From the UHGV virus genome UHGV-0068847: a stretch of 27,295 bases of DNA; one strand, written 5' to 3'. The first letter of the stretch is position 1; each line of letters opens with the position of its first letter. The DNA comes from a virus. The translations under genes were made by a program, and so were the position numbers. Of the stretch, positions 14,043 through 20,038 are shown piece by piece. The notes under the pieces were generated by a model that saw only the letters and a program-made list of their open reading frames with translations, made no database searches and was not told the origin of the DNA.

Positions 14043-14732
14043 ATGAATCAACAAGACCTGAATTTTGTAAGAATAGAATTGCGCCGCGCGCTACCTGACC
14101 TCTCTGGGGGAACAAAAGGGCAGCTTGAGGCTTTCAGTGAACACCCACCAGCAGACAAAAATGCCACCCCGCGCCGTGGAATTCATCTCGTCGAACTCGA
14201 AGGAGAGAAGGGGCCACGCTTTGTTAACTCGCTTTCCGCGCCACTGTATGTGCTGGAAACACGCAGCCGCCGCAGGCCAATGCCGCCGATAAAAGATGCG
14301 GAATTTGAGTCCGCGCCGTGGCGTAGGGCAGTGTCCGCGCTTAGTGGATACCAGCAGGCCTGGTTGCGGTACTGCTACGGTTTTGACCTTAGCTATAAGC
14401 ACCAGGTGATGATGTGTGAATACGTCTGGAAAACTTATCAGAAATGCCTGGGTGAAAACTCGCTTCAGGAGCGTGTAGTAAAGAAACTGATAGGTCTGGT
14501 ATGGCTGGCAGGGCAGGAAATTGCCGCAAACAGAAATAATGAAACCTATAAAGACTATGCTGGTGCAGCGTTGGCCCGCATGGTTAGCGTTGACCGTTCG
14601 ACATGGTTGCGTGTCTATTCATGGCACTGGGCTGGGTTAAAGGCCGCTTTTACCCAGCTTGATGAATCTGCGTTGGCAATGGCTCTTGAATACTATGAGG
14701 AAGAAGAAGCCCTCAAAGTGGCAGAAATGTGA
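14043..14732 (+). CDS. Late antiterminator Q-like protein (229 aa)
   Basis: Last gene before the pR'/tR'-like elements and the lysis cassette. ATG at 14043 with GGAG upstream; the alternative GTG is at 14022. Family assignment rests on position and size rather than a clear motif. Confidence 0.65.
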   Translation: MNQQDLNFVRIELRRALPDLSGGTKGQLEAFSEHPPADKNATPRRGIHLVELEGEKGPRFVNSLSAPLYVLETRSRRRPMPPIKDAEFESAPWRRAVSALSGYQQAWLRYCYGFDLSYKHQVMMCEYVWKTYQKCLGENSLQERVVKKLIGLVWLAGQEIAANRNNETYKDYAGAALARMVSVDRSTWLRVYSWHWAGLKAAFTQLDESALAMALEYYEEEEALKVAEM

Positions 14733-14762
14733 AGTAAATTTCACTATCTCCTTCAAACGCGC

Positions 14763-14791
14763 TTGCAAAATGCAACAAAATAAGCCATATT
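14763..14791 (+). promoter_or_regulatory. Candidate late promoter pR'
   Basis: TTGCAA (14763-14768), 17-nt spacer, CATATT (14786-14791). Lies 30 nt after the Q stop and upstream of a strong terminator. Confidence 0.3.
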
Positions 14792-14825
14792 TTAAGCATA
14801 TTTGATATGTTGCCAAAATTTTATA

Positions 14826-14853
14826 AACCCGCCGATGAGCGGGTTTTATTATT
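14826..14853 (+). terminator. Intrinsic terminator (tR'-like, presumed Q target)
   Basis: AAACCCGC-CGATGA-GCGGGTTT stem-loop followed by TATTATTGTT. Confidence 0.65.
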
Positions 14854-14948
14854 GTTGTTGGATGAAACTGAGGGGAAAGGTTAAAATTTGCCCTTCACCC
14901 GCCGGGTGATGTGCACATGAGTGCTATAAACTCCACATGGAGAGCATC

Positions 14949-15242
14949 ATGGTTAATTTAGATAGTCACCATTTTCATACCCTACGTTTTATTCATTCTT
15001 GTTATTTGTCTAATGAAGGTATGAATACTTTTGTGCAATTGTTATTCGTATCCAATCATCAGGATCCTGACGGCACATACCATGGGGTATTTCCAGATAC
15101 CAAGGTTGGTATAAGTATGACTGAATACCTATACCAAAAAACTTGCTCATCATCAGAGAAGGCTAAGTCATTAAAACCAACCTGGTTGCATTGGCGACAA
15201 CAGGAAGCTCTGGAGCTAAAACGAAATCCCTTTGATATTTAA
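14949..15242 (+). CDS. Moron-encoded hypothetical protein (97 aa; 101 aa if translated from 14937)
   Basis: Low-GC ORF between Q and the holin. GGAGAG lies 4 nt upstream of the ATG at 14949, with an extended -10-like TGCTATAAA at 14922-14930. The gene has its own strong terminator. Confidence 0.6.
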   Translation: MVNLDSHHFHTLRFIHSCYLSNEGMNTFVQLLFVSNHQDPDGTYHGVFPDTKVGISMTEYLYQKTCSSSEKAKSLKPTWLHWRQQEALELKRNPFDI

Positions 15243-15257
15243 ATTTGAGATTTACCA

Positions 15258-15287
15258 GCCCTGGCATTCGCCGGGGCTTTTTTATTT
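15258..15287 (+). terminator. Intrinsic terminator of the moron
   Basis: GCCCTGGC-ATTC-GCCGGGGC (8-bp stem with one G-U pair) followed by TTTTTTATTT. Confidence 0.8.
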
Positions 15288-15391
15288 CAGGCTCACGGGA
15301 ATCATCCACGATACATATTGTTGATAAATCCAGCCCGTGAAGCCTGACCCTTTCATCACACAGCGCCATCCGAATAATCGGAGGTAGGGCT

Positions 15392-15670
15392 ATGACCAGA
15401 ATGAGCACCATTTACAGCAGACTTTCATATGGATCAGGAACCACGCTTGCCGGCTGCGGTGTATCAGCGAAGGCATATGCCGAAACAGCTAAAACAGCAA
15501 AAGAGGTGTCCTGGATGTTGGCCGACAGAATTGCAGGGTTAAGCCTGAGCGACTGGGCAATTATTGTCGGTATCGCATGCACAGTTATCACTTGTGCAGT
15601 GAACTGGTATTTCCGCTGGAAAGAACGGGAGGATCGGCGCAATGGCTATGCCACCAAAGCTGAAGAATAA
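15392..15670 (+). CDS. Class II holin, probable pinholin with a dual-start motif (92 aa)
   Basis: MTRM dual-start motif (Met1-Thr-Arg-Met4). A weakly hydrophobic G/A/S-rich first TM segment and a strong second TM segment (WAIIVGIACTVITCAVNWYF) are followed by a charged tail. Strong GGAGG SD. Overlaps the endolysin start. Confidence 0.8.
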   Translation: MTRMSTIYSRLSYGSGTTLAGCGVSAKAYAETAKTAKEVSWMLADRIAGLSLSDWAIIVGIACTVITCAVNWYFRWKEREDRRNGYATKAEE

Positions 15671-16190
15671 ACTGAGCGCAGCGGTCGTTGGTTTGATTCT
15701 TGCGGGGGCTTCCGCGCCCGTGATTCTCGATCAGTTTCTGGATGAGAAAGAGGGTAACAGCCTGACAGCATATCGCGACGGCGGCGGAATCTGGACTATT
15801 TGCCGTGGCGCCACGATGGTTGATGGTAAGCCAGTAGTTCAGGGCATGAAGCTGTCTGCTGAGAAATGCGCCAAGGTGAACGCCATAGAACGCGACAAGG
15901 CGCTGGCGTGGGTTGAGCGAAATATCAAAGTACCACTGACCGAACCACAGAAAGCGGGTATTGCGTCATTTTGTCCTTACAACATCGGCCCCGGAAAATG
16001 TTTCCCTTCTACGTTCTATAAGCGCATTAACGCTGGTGACCGTAAAGGCGCCTGTGAAGCGATCCGCTGGTGGATTAAAGACGGCGGCCGCGACTGTCGT
16101 CTGACCAAAGGCCAGAAAAATGGGTGCTATGGGCAGGTCGAGCGGCGCGATCAAGAAAGTGCGCTGACGTGCTGGGGGATTGACCGGTGA
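15642..16190 (+). CDS. SAR endolysin (GH24 T4-lysozyme-like), 182 aa
   Basis: Catalytic E-x8-D-x5-T triad ([16 protein letters not shown]). The N-terminal G/A-rich signal-anchor-release segment is [19 protein letters not shown]. Confidence 0.92.
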
Positions 16191-16651
16191 GTCGACTAAC
16201 AAACATCATCATTACTGTGATCATCTGCATAATCTTATCTCTAGGCTGGGCCGTTAACCACTACCGCGACAACGCGATCACCTACAAAGACCAACGCAAC
16301 AAAGCAACTGAAAAGCTCAGCCTAGCTAACGTTACTATCACCGACATGCAAACCCGCCAGCGCGATGTCGCTGCACTGGATGCCAAATATACGAAGGAGT
16401 TAGCTGATGCGAAAAACACCATTAGCGGTCTACGTGGCGATGTTGAGTCTGGGCGCAAGCAGCTGCGCGTTGCAGCCGCCTGCAATAAAGTGCGTCAAAC
16501 CACCGACACCGCCAGCATGGATGATGCAACCGGCCCCAGACTTACTGACACCGCTCAACGGGATTATTTCACTCTCAGAGAGCGAATAGAAACTGTCACC
16601 AAGCAACTTGCCGGATTACAAGAATATGTCAGTGCGCAGAATTTAAAATGA
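16187..16651 (+). CDS. Rz: i-spanin Rz (154 aa)
   Basis: N-terminal TM segment and coiled-coil body. The C-terminal [10 protein letters not shown] motif resembles lambda Rz. GTGA overlap with the endolysin stop. Confidence 0.9.
16407..16589 (+). CDS. Rz1: o-spanin Rz1, embedded in the +1 frame of Rz (60 aa)
   Basis: Lipobox-like LGASSC. The segment [27 protein letters not shown] is near-identical in pattern to lambda Rz1. GAAGGAG SD 7 nt upstream. Confidence 0.88.
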
Positions 16652-16711
16652 CTTGTCACCTATTTCGCTGTCTGATTAGTTATTCAATATTAGTTGGCAT
16701 AGCGTTAGTAA

Positions 16712-16957
16712 TTAACTGCAATGGCTATGACTGCAATTAATTATGGCATCAGCTTTGCTTGATGAGGATGATGGATATTTTTCGGATAAGAATTTCTGTA
16801 TGTCTTCAACAGCTTCGATGCTGACTCTAATATTTGTATGGCCATTGTTTTTTAAATAATTAACTGCTTCATCTATAAGGTTGTTTTCTGATAGAAATTT
16901 GATAACAATGGCAAAGTTATCAACGCCGGTTTCGGTTAAAAGTTCACAGTTAGGCAT
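16712..16957 (-). CDS. Hypothetical 81-aa acidic protein (third gene of the small triplet)
   Basis: AT-rich ORF with a CTGGAG SD inside the end of the preceding gene and only a 5-nt gap. No plus-strand ORF competes. No domain recognised. Confidence 0.6.
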   Translation of the reverse strand: MPNCELLTETGVDNFAIVIKFLSENNLIDEAVNYLKNNGHTNIRVSIEAVEDIQKFLSEKYPSSSSSKADAIINCSHSHCS

Positions 16958-16962
16958 GGTTG

Positions 16963-17211
16963 TTACTCCAGTGATGTAAATGAGATTTTATTTTGGATTG
17001 TTTTTTTATCAGCGTGGGTGATATGTTTGTATGATTTTTGAGGTTGCCTAAACACAAAAGTTGTATTCAAAGTAATCGAGCTAATTAGGGTGGGCCGCTG
17101 GTTTGGTAAGGTCAGGGGATTAACTCTTATTCTATTACCTTTCTGCGTTGCCATAACCATGGGCAGACCCATCGTAATGGTAGTTTTTGAATAGGCCGCT
17201 AATGAATTCAT
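16963..17211 (-). CDS. Hypothetical 82-aa protein (second gene of the triplet)
   Basis: The ATG at 17211 forms an ATGA overlap with the upstream stop. T/S/N-rich sequence that looks beta-rich. No domain recognised. Confidence 0.55.
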   Translation of the reverse strand: MNSLAAYSKTTITMGLPMVMATQKGNRIRVNPLTLPNQRPTLISSITLNTTFVFRQPQKSYKHITHADKKTIQNKISFTSLE

Positions 17212-17396
17212 GGCGCATGGTTTTGGGAGGCGATTTGCAAGCAGGCATCTCGGACTTGTATCGCAAGACGAAGCCCTTCCTGAAATCTTGCTGATGCGTT
17301 GGGATCGTTTGCTGAATTTAGATAGACATTAAAAAGCTGCATGATGGTAACGCTATATGCTTGCTTAATAGCATTTTCAGTAATTGTTTCGTCCAT
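17208..17396 (-). CDS. Hypothetical 62-aa helical protein (first gene of the triplet; track ORF extends to 17456)
   Basis: The internal ATG at 17396 is preceded by GAGGAG 7 nt upstream. The remaining 5' part of the track ORF lacks an SD. Confidence 0.55.
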   Translation of the reverse strand: MDETITENAIKQAYSVTIMQLFNVYLNSANDPNASARFQEGLRLAIQVRDACLQIASQNHAP

Positions 17397-17482
17397 CGAG
17401 AATCTCCTCGGTAGCATAGATGACAGGTTTACTTCCGTCTTACCATAGGTCATCAATGGGATTACTTTAATAGGAAAGAAGC

Positions 17483-17605
17483 ATGAGCAAGCCGGACTGG
17501 GAGGTCATCGGGGCGGCGTACTGTGCCGGAGTGATGGCCCTCCGTGAAATTACATCGCAGCACGACATTAGTGAAGGGACAATGCAGAACCATACTAACT
17601 ACTGA
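17483..17605 (+). pseudogene. 40-codon fragment resembling the N-terminal HTH of a phage small-terminase or DNA-binding protein
   Basis: Hand translation gives MSKPDWEVIGAAYCAGVMALREITSQHDISEGTMQNHTNY*. The pattern (MSKPDW..I...Y..G..SLREI...H.IS.G) is typical of such N-termini and ends prematurely. Confidence 0.45.
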
Positions 17606-17635
17606 GTGAGTGAAACAGACAATATCATCGGTAAG

Positions 17636-17767
17636 GATGATGGCAATAGCCCCCGACTTACTGACGCCGCTAAACGGGATTATTTCACCCTCAGAGAGCG
17701 AATCAGCACCATCACCGGGCAAGTGAGTTACTTACAGGATTACATCAGGCAGCAATGTTTGAAGTGA
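17636..17767 (+). pseudogene. Duplicate 3' end of an Rz gene, with an embedded Rz1 3' end
   Basis: Translates to [43 protein letters not shown]. The +1 frame gives [17 protein letters not shown]... About 65 nt are highly similar to 16521-16586. There is no 5' part. Confidence 0.8.
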
Positions 17768-17801
17768 ATGGCCGCTAGACTTAGCCAGCCATTTTAAAGA
17801 G

Positions 17802-18227
17802 TTAACCAACGGTTAATGTGGAAAGCAAATGCGAAGTTTCCCCAGAGCAGTTAACAGTGGTTTCGTTGTAAGGGAATTCACCCGTATACTCGCTATTTGC
17901 AGGGGGAGTCATTTTGTTAATCAATGCAGCTTCTGCGCGCACCCGATCATCTTTTCCAGTAATAGTAGCGACGGAATAGCAGAGAGTCTCACCGACCATT
18001 AAATGTTCATTCCAGTCACCCAGCCTGTCGTGCGTGGCCACACGGGATCGGACGTTCGATGATTCGCCGATATAAATCAACTTACGAATTTCGAGTGTTG
18101 TCTTGGAGCCATTAGTAACAGCTTTGCATGCGTATACGCAGTAGATTCCTGACTGATCTGGAACGCCACTCTTATTGGCTTCACGCCAATACCCATCAAA
18201 TTGCAGATTAATTGTTTTACCAGTCAT
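17802..18227 (-). CDS. Stand-alone GIY-YIG nuclease-domain protein (141 aa)
   Basis: SGIYCVY...LIYIGESSNVRSRVATH, then RAEAALINKMTPPANSEY, supplying the GIY, YIG, Arg, Glu and Asn elements in canonical order. AGGAG SD 8 nt upstream. No extra DNA-binding domain. Confidence 0.8.
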   Translation of the reverse strand: MTGKTINLQFDGYWREANKSGVPDQSGIYCVYACKAVTNGSKTTLEIRKLIYIGESSNVRSRVATHDRLGDWNEHLMVGETLCYSVATITGKDDRVRAEAALINKMTPPANSEYTGEFPYNETTVNCSGETSHLLSTLTVG

Positions 18228-18647
18228 TTATAGCTTCTCCTAATTACGCCAACAATAGCGCAATAGGGAAGTGGGGAGATAAATCCAAGTTACAATGAGC
18301 AATCAGTATTTCAATGACTTATGTCATGATTTTCTTATTAATTATAGAAAATATGGGGTTTTTCCATGATGACTGCCATCGTGATAGCAGGTCGCTCAGC
18401 CATTGAACGGTAGGTTGTTTGTTACACAGGCTGCCATTACAGAGGCATTCACTGAGCGCCTGAGATAATGCACAATAACTCCCCCTGTACTGAAGGAAAT
18501 GTGGAAGAGAAAAATTCCATAGGGAGCAGACTAATCTGTAGGGATTGTCTCGATATCATTAGCGCGGTCATCCGGAAAGAATGGTTGATATGTACTGATT
18601 AGTCAAAATCATGCAGAATAGTCACAGTATAAATATGCGAGGCTATC

Positions 18648-19151
18648 ATGAATTATATTTACCAATTAGTGATCTCTGTAGTAGCGGGTGGACTTGGTGC
18701 ATGGATTGCAATGTTATTTGCTTTAAAACGTTTTTATAGTGAAAAGTGGTGGGAGAAGAGAGCAGGGGCCCTTATTGAATTAACTAATGCAATTTATCAG
18801 GTAAAGGTTCTACAAGATTATTATTCTGATTTGAAAGAGTATCAACGATTAGGTCCAGATGAATATCCAAACTTTATCAAATTGAGTGCTGAGAAACTTA
18901 GTAAATTACAAATCTCAGCTGCTGAGGCAAAAGATTTAATAGTAAAATATAGCAATATCGGCCCCTTGCTGGTTACTGAATCAGTATCAAAACTTCTAAC
19001 TGATTATTTGAAACGAGAAGATAAGGTTGACTATGAAGTTAATTTTCAGGGGTTAGATACAGATGATGCTGAAGAACATCTCTTATCGTTGACAAATAAA
19101 CTTCTGGAAGATTTAGTTAAAGAATCAAAAAGCGTTCTTAAAGCAAAGTAA
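18648..19151 (+). CDS. Single-pass membrane protein with a helical/coiled C-terminal domain (167 aa)
   Basis: N-terminal TM helix YQLVISVVAGGLGAWIAMLFAL followed by K/E/L-rich helical sequence. Very low GC. GAGG lies 5 nt upstream of the ATG. No family recognised. Confidence 0.75.
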   Translation: MNYIYQLVISVVAGGLGAWIAMLFALKRFYSEKWWEKRAGALIELTNAIYQVKVLQDYYSDLKEYQRLGPDEYPNFIKLSAEKLSKLQISAAEAKDLIVKYSNIGPLLVTESVSKLLTDYLKREDKVDYEVNFQGLDTDDAEEHLLSLTNKLLEDLVKESKSVLKAK

Positions 19152-19168
19152 TCTAGAAGAAAACCTAA

Positions 19169-19197
19169 GGGCACTAAATGTGATGTGCCCATTTAAT
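19169..19197 (+). terminator. Weak stem-loop after the membrane-protein gene
   Basis: GGGCAC-10 nt-GTGCCC followed by ATTTAATT. Confidence 0.4.
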
Positions 19198-19279
19198 TGT
19201 GCATACGCTAAGAGAATCATTATAGGGATAGCTTATAAATCGAATTGTGAAATTGATATTTATTATCGTTTGCGGGTCC

Positions 19280-19480
19280 TTTCCAGCGATCCGCTCCGTT
19301 ACGGGGCGGCGACCGCGCAGATTCTCGCTATTTATGAAAATTTTCAGGCATTTGCCGTTTCCGTTCTTCTTCTCGCTAATTCATTGTTTTAACTGTAAAC
19401 ACCCCCTGAAAAGAAAGGAAATGATAAGCCTTAAAAACGGCTAAATAGCCAGAGGGCGTTTCCTTTCTCTGTTTTTGTGC
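19280..19480 (+). other. Lambda-type cos site (cosN cohesive-end sequence at 19304-19315; cosB R3, R2 and R1 terminase boxes)
   Basis: CGTTACG|GGGCGGCGACCG differs by one base from recalled lambda GGGCGGCGACCT, and TCGCTATTTATGAAAATTTTC follows. R3 CGTTTCCGTTCTTCTTC is at 19356-19372, R2 CTGAAAAGAAAGGAAATG at 19406-19423, and R1 CGTTTCCTTTCTCTGTTTTTG at 19457-19477. All lie directly upstream of nu1. Confidence 0.88.
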
Positions 19481-19492
19481 ATGGAGTGAGCT

Positions 19493-20038
19493 ATGGAGGT
19501 CAACAAAAAGCGTCTTTCTGAAATATTTGGGGTCAGCGTGCGAACCATTCAGAACTGGCAGGATCAGGGAATGCCTGTAGCACGTGGCGGCGGAAAAGGT
19601 AATGAGGTCCTCTATGAATCTTCCGCGGCTATTGAATGGTATTCCGCACGCGACGCGGCGATTGAGAATGAGAAATTACGGAAGGAGGTGGAAGACCTTC
19701 GTCTTGCATCGGAATCCGACCTTCAGCCTGGTACGATTGACTATGAGCGTCATCGCCTCACCCGGGCACAGGCTGACGCCCAGGAACTAAAAAATGCAAA
19801 AGATTCCGCTGAGGTGGTGGAAACCGCATTCTGCACGTTCGTGCTGTCGCGGATGGCCGGAGAAGTAGCCAGCATTCTTGATGGAGTTGCTCTGTCTGTT
19901 CAGCGGCGCTTCCCGGAGCTGGAAAACCGACATATTGATTTCCTCAAGAAGGACATCATTAAAGCCATGAACAAAGCAGCTGCGCTGGATGAAATAATAC
20001 CGGGGTTGCTGAGTGAATATATCGAACAGTCAGGTTAA
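19493..20038 (+). CDS. nu1: Terminase small subunit Nu1 (181 aa)
   Basis: MEVNKKRLSEIFGVSVRTIQNWQDQGMPV...SEYIEQSG is near-identical to recalled lambda Nu1 along its full length. Confidence 0.97.
   Translation: MEVNKKRLSEIFGVSVRTIQNWQDQGMPVARGGGKGNEVLYESSAAIEWYSARDAAIENEKLRKEVEDLRLASESDLQPGTIDYERHRLTRAQADAQELKNAKDSAEVVETAFCTFVLSRMAGEVASILDGVALSVQRRFPELENRHIDFLKKDIIKAMNKAAALDEIIPGLLSEYIEQSG

Follow-up and report, generated by a model that had tools for sequence, protein, structure and literature searches.

The DNA between the lysis and packaging genes of UHGV virus genome UHGV-0068847, analyzed here within a stretch of 27,295 nucleotides (nt; the window), raises the question of how a phage came to carry two 3' ends of the spanin genes Rz and Rz1, one belonging to an intact gene pair and the other lying downstream beside the orphaned start of a small terminase gene (terS). 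The window is a lambdoid prophage of Citrobacter, and look-ups of identical proteins returned the source names C. braakii and C. freundii. The first-pass annotation of this DNA had interpreted the second Rz end as part of a scar left by cargo insertion. We propose that the terS fragment and the Rz remnant, hereafter terS' and 'Rz_B, rather probably constitute a novel joint generated by one unequal, non-homologous crossover in the lysis-packaging interval of two lambdoid phages; that the event was single, and the direction in which it ran, is what we infer. The elements on which this proposal turns are the following:

16187-16651, plus strand: Rz_A, the intact resident i-spanin gene (154 amino acids, aa) and last gene of the lysis cassette (Pfam Phage_lysis positions 1-124 of 126, E 1.4e-41; PHROG 13, E 2e-67)
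16407-16589, plus strand: Rz1_A, the intact embedded o-spanin gene (60 aa), with its lipobox Cys (Pfam Rz1 positions 1-41 of 41, E 1.1e-17)
16519-16587, plus strand: first copy of the Rz/Rz1 dual-coding core, 87% identical to 17635-17703
17483-17605, plus strand: terS', a presumably dead N-terminal fragment (40 codons) of an HK639/Klebsiella-type small terminase gene (phrog_1206)
17578-17629, no strand assigned: junction filler, about 50 nt between the end of the terS homology and the start of the Rz homology, with no match
17630-17767, plus strand: 'Rz_B, a presumably dead C-terminal stretch of ~45 codons from a foreign allele of Rz (Pfam Phage_lysis positions 85-125 of 126)
17610-17726, plus strand: 'Rz1_B, a co-embedded o-spanin C-terminal remnant without signal peptide or lipobox (Pfam Rz1, PF06085, positions 20-41 of 41)
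17767-17795, plus strand: hairpin and T-run right after the 'Rz_B stop, shared with the convergent GIY-YIG gene (AATGGC...GCCATTTT)

The same arrangement recurs at 97-99.98% identity in 11 fetched loci (L003, L006-L015), and since these come from independent assemblies it is not an assembly artefact. The Rz and Rz1 C-termini that the first-pass annotation had placed at 17636-17767 are indeed those of spanin genes. A direct repeat with 75% identity links 16489-16606 to 17605-17722, and its core, which had been described as a match of ~65 nt, reaches 87% over 69 nt between 16519-16587 and 17635-17703 (BLAST E 3e-17), the translation being exactly as it had been given. The open reading frame (ORF) called at 17606-17767 has 53 codons, a GTG start and no transmembrane domain; it matches Pfam Phage_lysis (PF03245) at positions 85-125 of 126 only (E 1.6e-14) and the PHROG 13 Rz-like spanin profile at positions 110-154 of 154, and in tblastn searches 'Rz_B covers Rz residues 109-151 only. 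It is thus homologous to the C-terminal domain of Rz and has neither the N-terminal anchor nor the full periplasmic coiled-coil of an i-spanin of ~150 aa. The co-embedded second Rz1 end, likewise recognized in the first pass, scores 25.4 bits against Pfam Rz1 (E 1.2e-5), under the 27.9-bit cut-off, because only its C-terminal half is present. As the membrane anchor and the lipobox are missing, neither 'Rz_B nor 'Rz1_B is predicted to be able to reach the periplasm; we see no sign that the terS'/'Rz scar is functional, and both fragments are presumably without function.

The 53-aa ORF additionally matches phrog_2934 at positions 18-63 of 63 (E 1.9e-16). We observed that this 63-position profile, annotated as 'unknown function', also matches the C-terminal part of Rz_A; C-terminal remnants of Rz, rather than a distinct protein, are therefore its probable source. 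In the Klebsiella phages L016 and L018 an 'Rz1 lytic protein' is annotated 3' of Rz; these two cases were considered as further duplications and rejected, there being no nucleotide repeat of Rz there.

In the first pass the second Rz end had been taken for a duplicate of the resident gene that resulted from insertion of a cassette. Comparison with other spanins instead identifies it as a foreign allele: its amino acid identity is 81% to the Rz of Klebsiella phage ST147-VIM1phi7.2 (L018) as against 55% to Rz_A, and its nucleotide identity to the former is 90% over 17648-17746. Outside the dual-coding core the Rz_A and 'Rz_B tails diverge in the alignment, and both tail types occur elsewhere as full-length Rz, the ETVTKQL.GLQEYV type in L065, L126 and L089, and the TITGQVSYLQDYIR.QC type in L018, L076 and L095.

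The fragment at 17483-17605, for which a helix-turn-helix or small-terminase-like origin had been suggested, is the N-terminus of a small terminase. It matches phrog_1206 at positions 4-39 of 207 (E 1.2e-11), residues 1-35 of the terS products of HK639, SEN34 and Klebsiella phages at 66-71% (tblastn), and the terS start of Klebsiella phage ST101-KPC2phi6.1 at 85% nucleotide identity. Homology to full-length terS stops at ~17577-17593 (codon 33-37) and the ORF itself at codon 40, leaving an N-terminal segment presumed by its position to bind DNA; the oligomerization and TerL-binding parts of a full small terminase (~200 aa) and an adjoining terL are absent. The full-length terS genes matched by terS' sit 3' of lysis genes in Klebsiella phages, and on this account we propose that the parent contributing it had the normal order Rz-cargo-terS. 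The nucleotides at 17578-17629 may be filler, or may come from a variable portion of Rz not represented among the sampled sequences.

Homologous recombination within Rz yields one chimeric Rz, and a terS'/'Rz joint hence calls for a non-homologous join. We envisage that this joint would connect terS' (17483-~17580) to 'Rz_B (~17630-17767). One parent, A, would have given everything leftward, namely Rz_A/Rz1_A, an AT-rich three-gene cassette and the first ~33 codons of an HK639-type terS, and the other, B, everything rightward from codon ~105 of Rz_B, namely the hairpin, a GIY-YIG gene and a gene for a 167-aa protein, together with the phi80-type cos, Nu1 and the structural genes. The crossover would have run from a downstream point in A, within terS, to an upstream point in B, within Rz, and its product would carry, in order, the left arm of A, Rz_A, the cargo of A, terS'/'Rz_B, the cargo of B, and the packaging and structural genes of B. 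Such a recombinant would keep one working copy of each essential gene along with the cargo of both parents, and the scar, its dead ends lying back to back with terS' before 'Rz, would separate two cargo slots. A single crossover of this kind would account for the presence and order of the two fragments, for 'Rz_B being of a foreign allele, for the difference in type between terS' and the working Nu1, and for the stepwise profile of GC (guanine plus cytosine) content, which is ~52-56% in the backbone, 33-42% in the cassette, ~50% in the terS'/'Rz island and 33% in the 167-aa gene. Relative to the backbone, the cassette and the 167-aa gene show the deviant base composition that is seen in morons.

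The right-hand side of the joint holds the second cargo slot:

17802-18227, minus strand: stand-alone GIY-YIG nuclease-fold protein of 141 aa
18435-18475, plus strand: conserved intergenic hairpin motif of ~40 nt found at module boundaries of numerous temperate phages, CATTACAG(N)AGGCATTCACTGAG.GCCT
18648-19151, plus strand: 167-aa protein, read by sequence as having a hydrophobic N-terminal stretch (phrog_17948, E 6.7e-21)

We observed that 17635-18327, comprising the Rz tail, the hairpin, the GIY-YIG gene and ~100 nt beyond it, forms one block with 68% identity over 702 nt to two metagenomic phage contigs (L027, L028). In L027 the GIY-YIG homologue is convergent to an intact 153-aa Rz, which is followed by a homologous hairpin, and in Klebsiella variicola-type prophages (L020-L023) it again lies beside a decayed Rz tail and hairpin in the context of a different lysis cassette. 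This colinearity in L027/L028, together with the renewed flanking in L020-L023, leads us to conclude that the Rz 3' end arrived with the GIY-YIG block. The hairpin itself is present where the first pass had placed it (17767-17795) and folds at -11.5 kcal/mol, better than shuffled sequence (z = -2.4). The notion of a cargo-acquisition scar therefore survives in part: recombination scars in the Rz-to-packaging hotspot are real and the Rz 3' end does travel with cargo, but that cargo is the GIY-YIG block on its right and not the cassette on its left.

The 141-aa protein is named as a GIY-YIG nuclease family member in NCBI and has 207 homologues. Its Pfam GIY-YIG match (E 0.0019) lies below the cut-off; its structural model has a pLDDT (predicted local distance difference test) score of 94.5 and finds the N-terminal GIY-YIG domain of UvrC as the best PDB match (probability 1.0, E 0.008), and it has the characters of a GIY-YIG catalytic domain. 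On the strength of the model we confidently predict a GIY-YIG fold; Pfam, the model and the structure search detected no further, DNA-binding, domain in the 141 aa, and a search of IMG/VR with the protein returned nothing. The 167-aa protein matches only phrog_17948, with no Pfam or NCBIfam match. The ~40-nt motif between these genes is ~92% identical to phi80 44300-44338, directly after rha, and may be a shared terminator that doubles as a crossover point. Further occurrences between the lysis genes and cos are in mEp390, several Klebsiella phages, Pectobacterium phage ZF40 and the record of an Elizabethkingia phage. A gene for a 185-aa protein is flanked by two copies in L002/L004 (5353-5382, 4683-4721), the L002 copy folding at -26 kcal/mol (z = -4.2).

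The first cargo slot lies on the left-hand side of the joint and is occupied by the cassette, its genes given here by number:

17208-17396, minus strand: gene 1, 62-aa protein, with its ATG at 17396 preceded by GAGGAG
16963-17211, minus strand: gene 2, 82-aa ORF, its start overlapping the stop of the 62-aa gene (ATGA)
16712-16957, minus strand: gene 3, 81-aa protein, forming one 90%-identity cluster

The 81-aa protein falls in a single 90%-identity cluster among 5.8 billion proteins (Citrobacter braakii) and has ~15 remote homologues of roughly 80 aa, from which we conclude that it represents a real small family. Over 40 residues its profile weakly resembles part of BREX BrxB (PDB 9zn5/9zll, E 0.001-0.01; Pfam BrxB for one member), a lead that could point to a BrxB-like decoy or partner or could be due to chance. 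The 62-aa gene is called in most of the related loci shown and the 82-aa ORF in some assemblies only; neither has a family match. PADLOC, Pfam and NCBIfam assigned no function to the cassette or to the 167-aa protein, and substitution patterns provided no coding evidence for the three cassette ORFs, the cassette being nearly invariant (0-3 changes).

Exact look-ups of the 81-aa protein recovered two architectures, that of the window and that of L001, L002, L004 and L005. In the latter, where the 81-aa gene is 100% identical, homology to the window spans 15318-17523 and then stops with no second Rz end; in place of 17524-19247 stands another module, in part phi80-like, with genes for 185, 204 and 63/76 aa, and from cosQ (19248) onward the sequences are again homologous. 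Between the two architectures identity is 95% in the lysozyme gene, 99.4-100% across Rz_A plus the cassette (16187-17396), 93-94% in the cassette promoter region and 76% in the first 41 nt of terS'. Furthermore, the 81-aa gene follows the exact Rz_A protein in 24 of the 24 contigs read, which comprise three antiterminator types and two packaging types. No presence/absence polymorphism of the cassette was thus seen with this Rz_A allele; the block 17524-19247, replaced in L001, L002, L004 and L005, is polymorphic among close relatives. For this allele, the relatives that the first-pass annotation had proposed to look for, bearing one Rz end and lacking the cassette, were not found. Based on the 24/24 linkage and the identity profile, the unit that recently moved among Citrobacter prophages is Rz_A plus the cassette, and not a cassette delimited by two Rz ends; a near-identical block with diverged flanks looks like the product of relaxed homologous exchange. 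The relatives lacking 'Rz retain a shorter terS head (~13 codons) of a different allele (76% identity), from which we deduce that the cassette once lay directly 5' of an intact terS, the normal position of a moron. In L001 and L005 (locus 1-2366) the gene for the large terminase is either truncated (215 aa) or absent, and a tyrosine integrase and two AlpA-family genes come directly after it; the stretch has the look of a further element that entered the packaging module by insertion or recombination. Beyond the exact-protein look-ups, the cassette was not found in isolated phages, GTDB species representatives or IMG/VR, nor in 5,426 complete E. coli genomes searched with megablast, which needs roughly 85% identity or more; the E. 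coli matches listed cover only the cos/Nu1 end of the query.

Joints of terS' and 'Rz recur elsewhere. A search with the 53-aa ORF, which seems to favor proteins of similar length and is not a census, recovered nothing but small ORFs (30-88 aa) with an Rz tail, from Enterobacter, Klebsiella and Cronobacter; 15 other short clusters in this size range share the Rz tail, and at least six of them start with a frame-shifted terS head (LGGHRDGVPGRGDA...). A second type of joint, widespread among Klebsiella-group prophages, fuses terS codons 1-18 to Rz codon ~106 at a GATG microhomology and occurs in L032-34, in K. quasipneumoniae (L035/36), in K. oxytoca (L037) and in an IMG/VR contig (L039), at the following places:

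L032, 4007-4153: codon-18 joint
L035/L036, 3987-4156: codon-18 joint
L037, 4001-4192: codon-18 joint
L039, 4707-4876: codon-18 joint

L037 is laid out like the window: an intact Rz comes first, two genes separate it from the joint, and a minus-strand gene lies between the joint and terS. In L032 a minus-strand gene comes after the joint, and beyond it lies a terS of the same type that is intact. L032, L035/L039 and L037 have only the ~200-nt scar in common (61-82% identity), their flanks over 300 nt upstream and 200 nt downstream being unrelated (~50%). In L032 the terS' part has degenerated and carries a stop codon, and a count by eye over 21 codons gave 10 synonymous against 3 non-synonymous differences between its Rz tail and that of the window. 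In both L035 and L037, the frame opened by the terS start codon runs on into that of the Rz1 C-terminus. Other Rz-tail remnants have other partners, such as a tail-tube fragment in P0130. Two Rz places were present in 0 of 120 sampled IMG/VR loci with the exact Rz/Rz1 core, which suggests that the full-plus-fragment layout is uncommon; the strict codon-18 joint pattern was found in 0 loci among GTDB representatives and in 2 in IMG/VR, and searches of the full-text literature yielded no description of terS'/'Rz scars. Genes of the Acb2/Tad1-hairpin family, linked to counter-defence against cyclic-nucleotide signaling, were seen near Rz remnants in the Klebsiella-type lysis-to-terminase hotspot:

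L020-L023, 5866-6150: Acb2/Tad1-hairpin gene
L031, 4448-4726: Acb2/Tad1-hairpin gene
L035/L036, 1135-1419: Acb2/Tad1-hairpin gene

These observations allow several other explanations to be weighed. By coordinates the cassette does sit between the two Rz ends, and different phages share the Rz/Rz1 core at 85-96% over 50-100 nt, which would be enough for homologous exchange; yet the first-pass scenario, in which the cassette was gained by recombination within Rz and the two Rz 3' ends are insertion flanks that bound a mobile unit, strikes us as very improbable. The cassette occurs without a second Rz in L001, L002, L004 and L005 and is always linked to Rz_A, with which it makes up the near-identical shared block; the second Rz end represents another allele, and its colinearity is with the GIY-YIG block that lies to its other side; and recombination within Rz would leave a single chimeric gene, with neither a duplicate nor a terS fragment. 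A tandem duplication in one genome, reaching from the 3' end of Rz into the 5' end of terS, after which the copies diverged and one cargo was exchanged, predicts the order full Rz, X, terS'/'Rz, X, terS and so fits what is observed, but it too is hard to entertain and we regard it as very improbable: the two Rz tails, at 55% amino acid identity, fall in different allele groups that both have functional full-length genes elsewhere, the downstream packaging gene is Nu1 and not of the terS type of the fragment, and the two cargos share nothing. Insertion of a transposon or site-specific element with target-site duplication is at odds with the window, because the repeats are different alleles, one flank is a terS fragment, and family and profile searches of 16652-19247 detected no recombinase gene.

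A more active role for the second cargo slot is conceivable. The GIY-YIG protein could be a free-standing homing-type endonuclease that cuts near the Rz end in phages without it, with repair copying its gene and the Rz 3' flank and an occasional one-sided, non-homologous repair leaving orphan Rz tails. The fold is supported by Pfam, the model and the structure match, the gene is convergent to the Rz 3' end within ~40-60 nt in three contexts (intact Rz in L027; remnants in the window and in L020-23), and homologues occupy the lysis-to-terminase gap in all five enterobacterial contexts looked up. Against this, the protein has only 141 aa and no recognizable DNA-binding domain, its family is widespread under non-enterobacterial source names (including Thermoguttaceae, Ruminococcaceae, Spirochaetaceae, Aeromonas), the gene occurs without an Rz remnant in L024-26, and orphan Rz tails at the other joint (L032, L035, L037) have no adjoining GIY-YIG gene; homing is therefore an improbable origin of the scar. 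A further idea, that the scar was kept as a useful homology adaptor whose terS' and 'Rz parts act as crossover points, each cargo slot being swappable by relaxed homologous recombination, concerns its persistence. The codon-18 joint forms an island common to L032, L035/L039 and L037 between unrelated flanks; remnant Rz tails differ mainly synonymously while the terS' of L032 has a stop, as if the tails had been refreshed from functional alleles; and phage Rad52-type recombinases act on diverged short homologies (PMC3945230). However, the loci are few, full-plus-fragment layouts are rare, and the pattern would also be in keeping with passive hitch-hiking of an old scar combined with ordinary exchange, so that we consider such retention of this scar rather unlikely. 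As a general proposition, that terS'/'Rz scars are reusable adaptors dividing the enterobacterial lysis-to-packaging hotspot into independent cargo slots is a tentative and doubtful possibility, and we attach the same reserve to the corollary that the Rz/Rz1 core would be the right-hand landing pad and the terS 5' end the left-hand one. If true, prophages would accumulate accessory and defence genes serially and not by replacement.

The unequal crossover that we favor has points against it as well. Neither parent was recovered, and no phage with Rz_A, the cassette and an intact terS was found; all 24 contigs read with the exact Rz_A have the cassette, and those shown carry the terS remnant. 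Identity to L027, the closest model of parent B, amounts to only 68%, and the packaging genes of L027 are others. The shorter terS' in the relatives without 'Rz may reflect independent truncation or later replacement, and the ~50 nt at 17578-17629, which found no match in any fetched locus, may conceal more than one event or templated filler. Moreover, it has been argued that the mosaicism of lambda-like phages is mostly due to relaxed homologous recombination, illegitimate events being much rarer (De Paepe et al. 2014, PMC3945230).

The remaining landmarks of the late region are:

15392-15670: holin
15642-16190: lysozyme
19248-19315, plus strand: phi80-type cosQ together with cosN, the cohesive end of 12 nt, matching the features for cosQ plus sticky end in phi80 at 90% identity
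19493-20038: Nu1, followed by gpA, the working packaging genes

The variable DNA between Rz_A and cos amounts to ~2.6 kb. It is limited by the Rz stop codon on the left and on the right exactly by the phi80-type cosQ, the start of the phi80 genome aligning at window position 19304. An Rfam scan of 14500-20000 recovered nothing relevant, and a scan for consensus promoters and terminators performed no better than on shuffled sequence. A weak Rfam Trp_leader match at 14758-14852 on the plus strand (E 0.17; 23.8 bits, where the gathering score is 41), just 3' of the Q antiterminator gene, is probably due to chance or to a terminator-like structure at the start of the late transcript.

If formed as we propose, the scar is a legible record of a temperate phage gaining cargo without loss, an unequal crossover having stacked both sets. 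It also calls for a correction of annotations: short 'lysis protein' ORFs and phrog_2934 match Rz tails, and the remnants examined have no N-terminal anchor. In addition, the limits from the Rz stop to cosQ should be useful for mining defence and counter-defence genes in Citrobacter, Klebsiella and Enterobacter prophages. No new mechanism is revealed by the scar.

The region from Rz to cos/terS is a classic cargo slot, occupied for example by bor in lambda, and phi80 has rha and further ORFs there. According to the model reportedly advanced by Hendrix, Juhala and Casjens, lambdoid mosaicism arises from illegitimate recombination filtered by selection, giving novel joints and morons. Like these, the extra genes of the window deviate in GC content and sit between genes that are adjacent in relatives, with module boundaries at or near gene ends; unlike them, the joint of the window lies inside two genes, both dead ends are kept, and cargo has been stacked and not replaced. 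A comparable placement of cargo is that of LT-II toxin genes immediately 3' of a lysis gene (PMC3252337). Relaxed homologous recombination also takes place between temperate phages and defective prophages: lambda and Dlp12 have an identity region that takes in R and Rz to one side of cos, and nu1 and A to its other side, which supports exchange, and such recombination between the two across this region has been demonstrated experimentally (PMC3945230). The near-identical block of Rz_A and cassette with its diverged flanks resembles this process (De Paepe et al. 2014), which differs in giving one chimeric gene and cannot create a terS'/'Rz joint of unrelated sequences. Orphan Rz C-terminal ORFs in databases (phrog_2934; 'lysis protein' and 'prophage endopeptidase' of Enterobacter and Klebsiella) match the 53-aa ORF of the window. 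They are annotated as proteins, whereas the window and at least six clusters have a frame-shifted terS 5' end upstream and for that reason count as recombination scars. Free-standing GIY-YIG homing endonucleases of phages include the T4 Seg proteins and I-TevI. The 141-aa protein is similar to such enzymes in fold, intergenic position and co-travelling flank, and unlike them in comprising only 141 aa and lacking a DNA-binding domain. Taken with these systems, the scar is a clear and fairly ordinary case of a known process, the formation of lambdoid mosaic joints, in a modestly interesting recurrent form.

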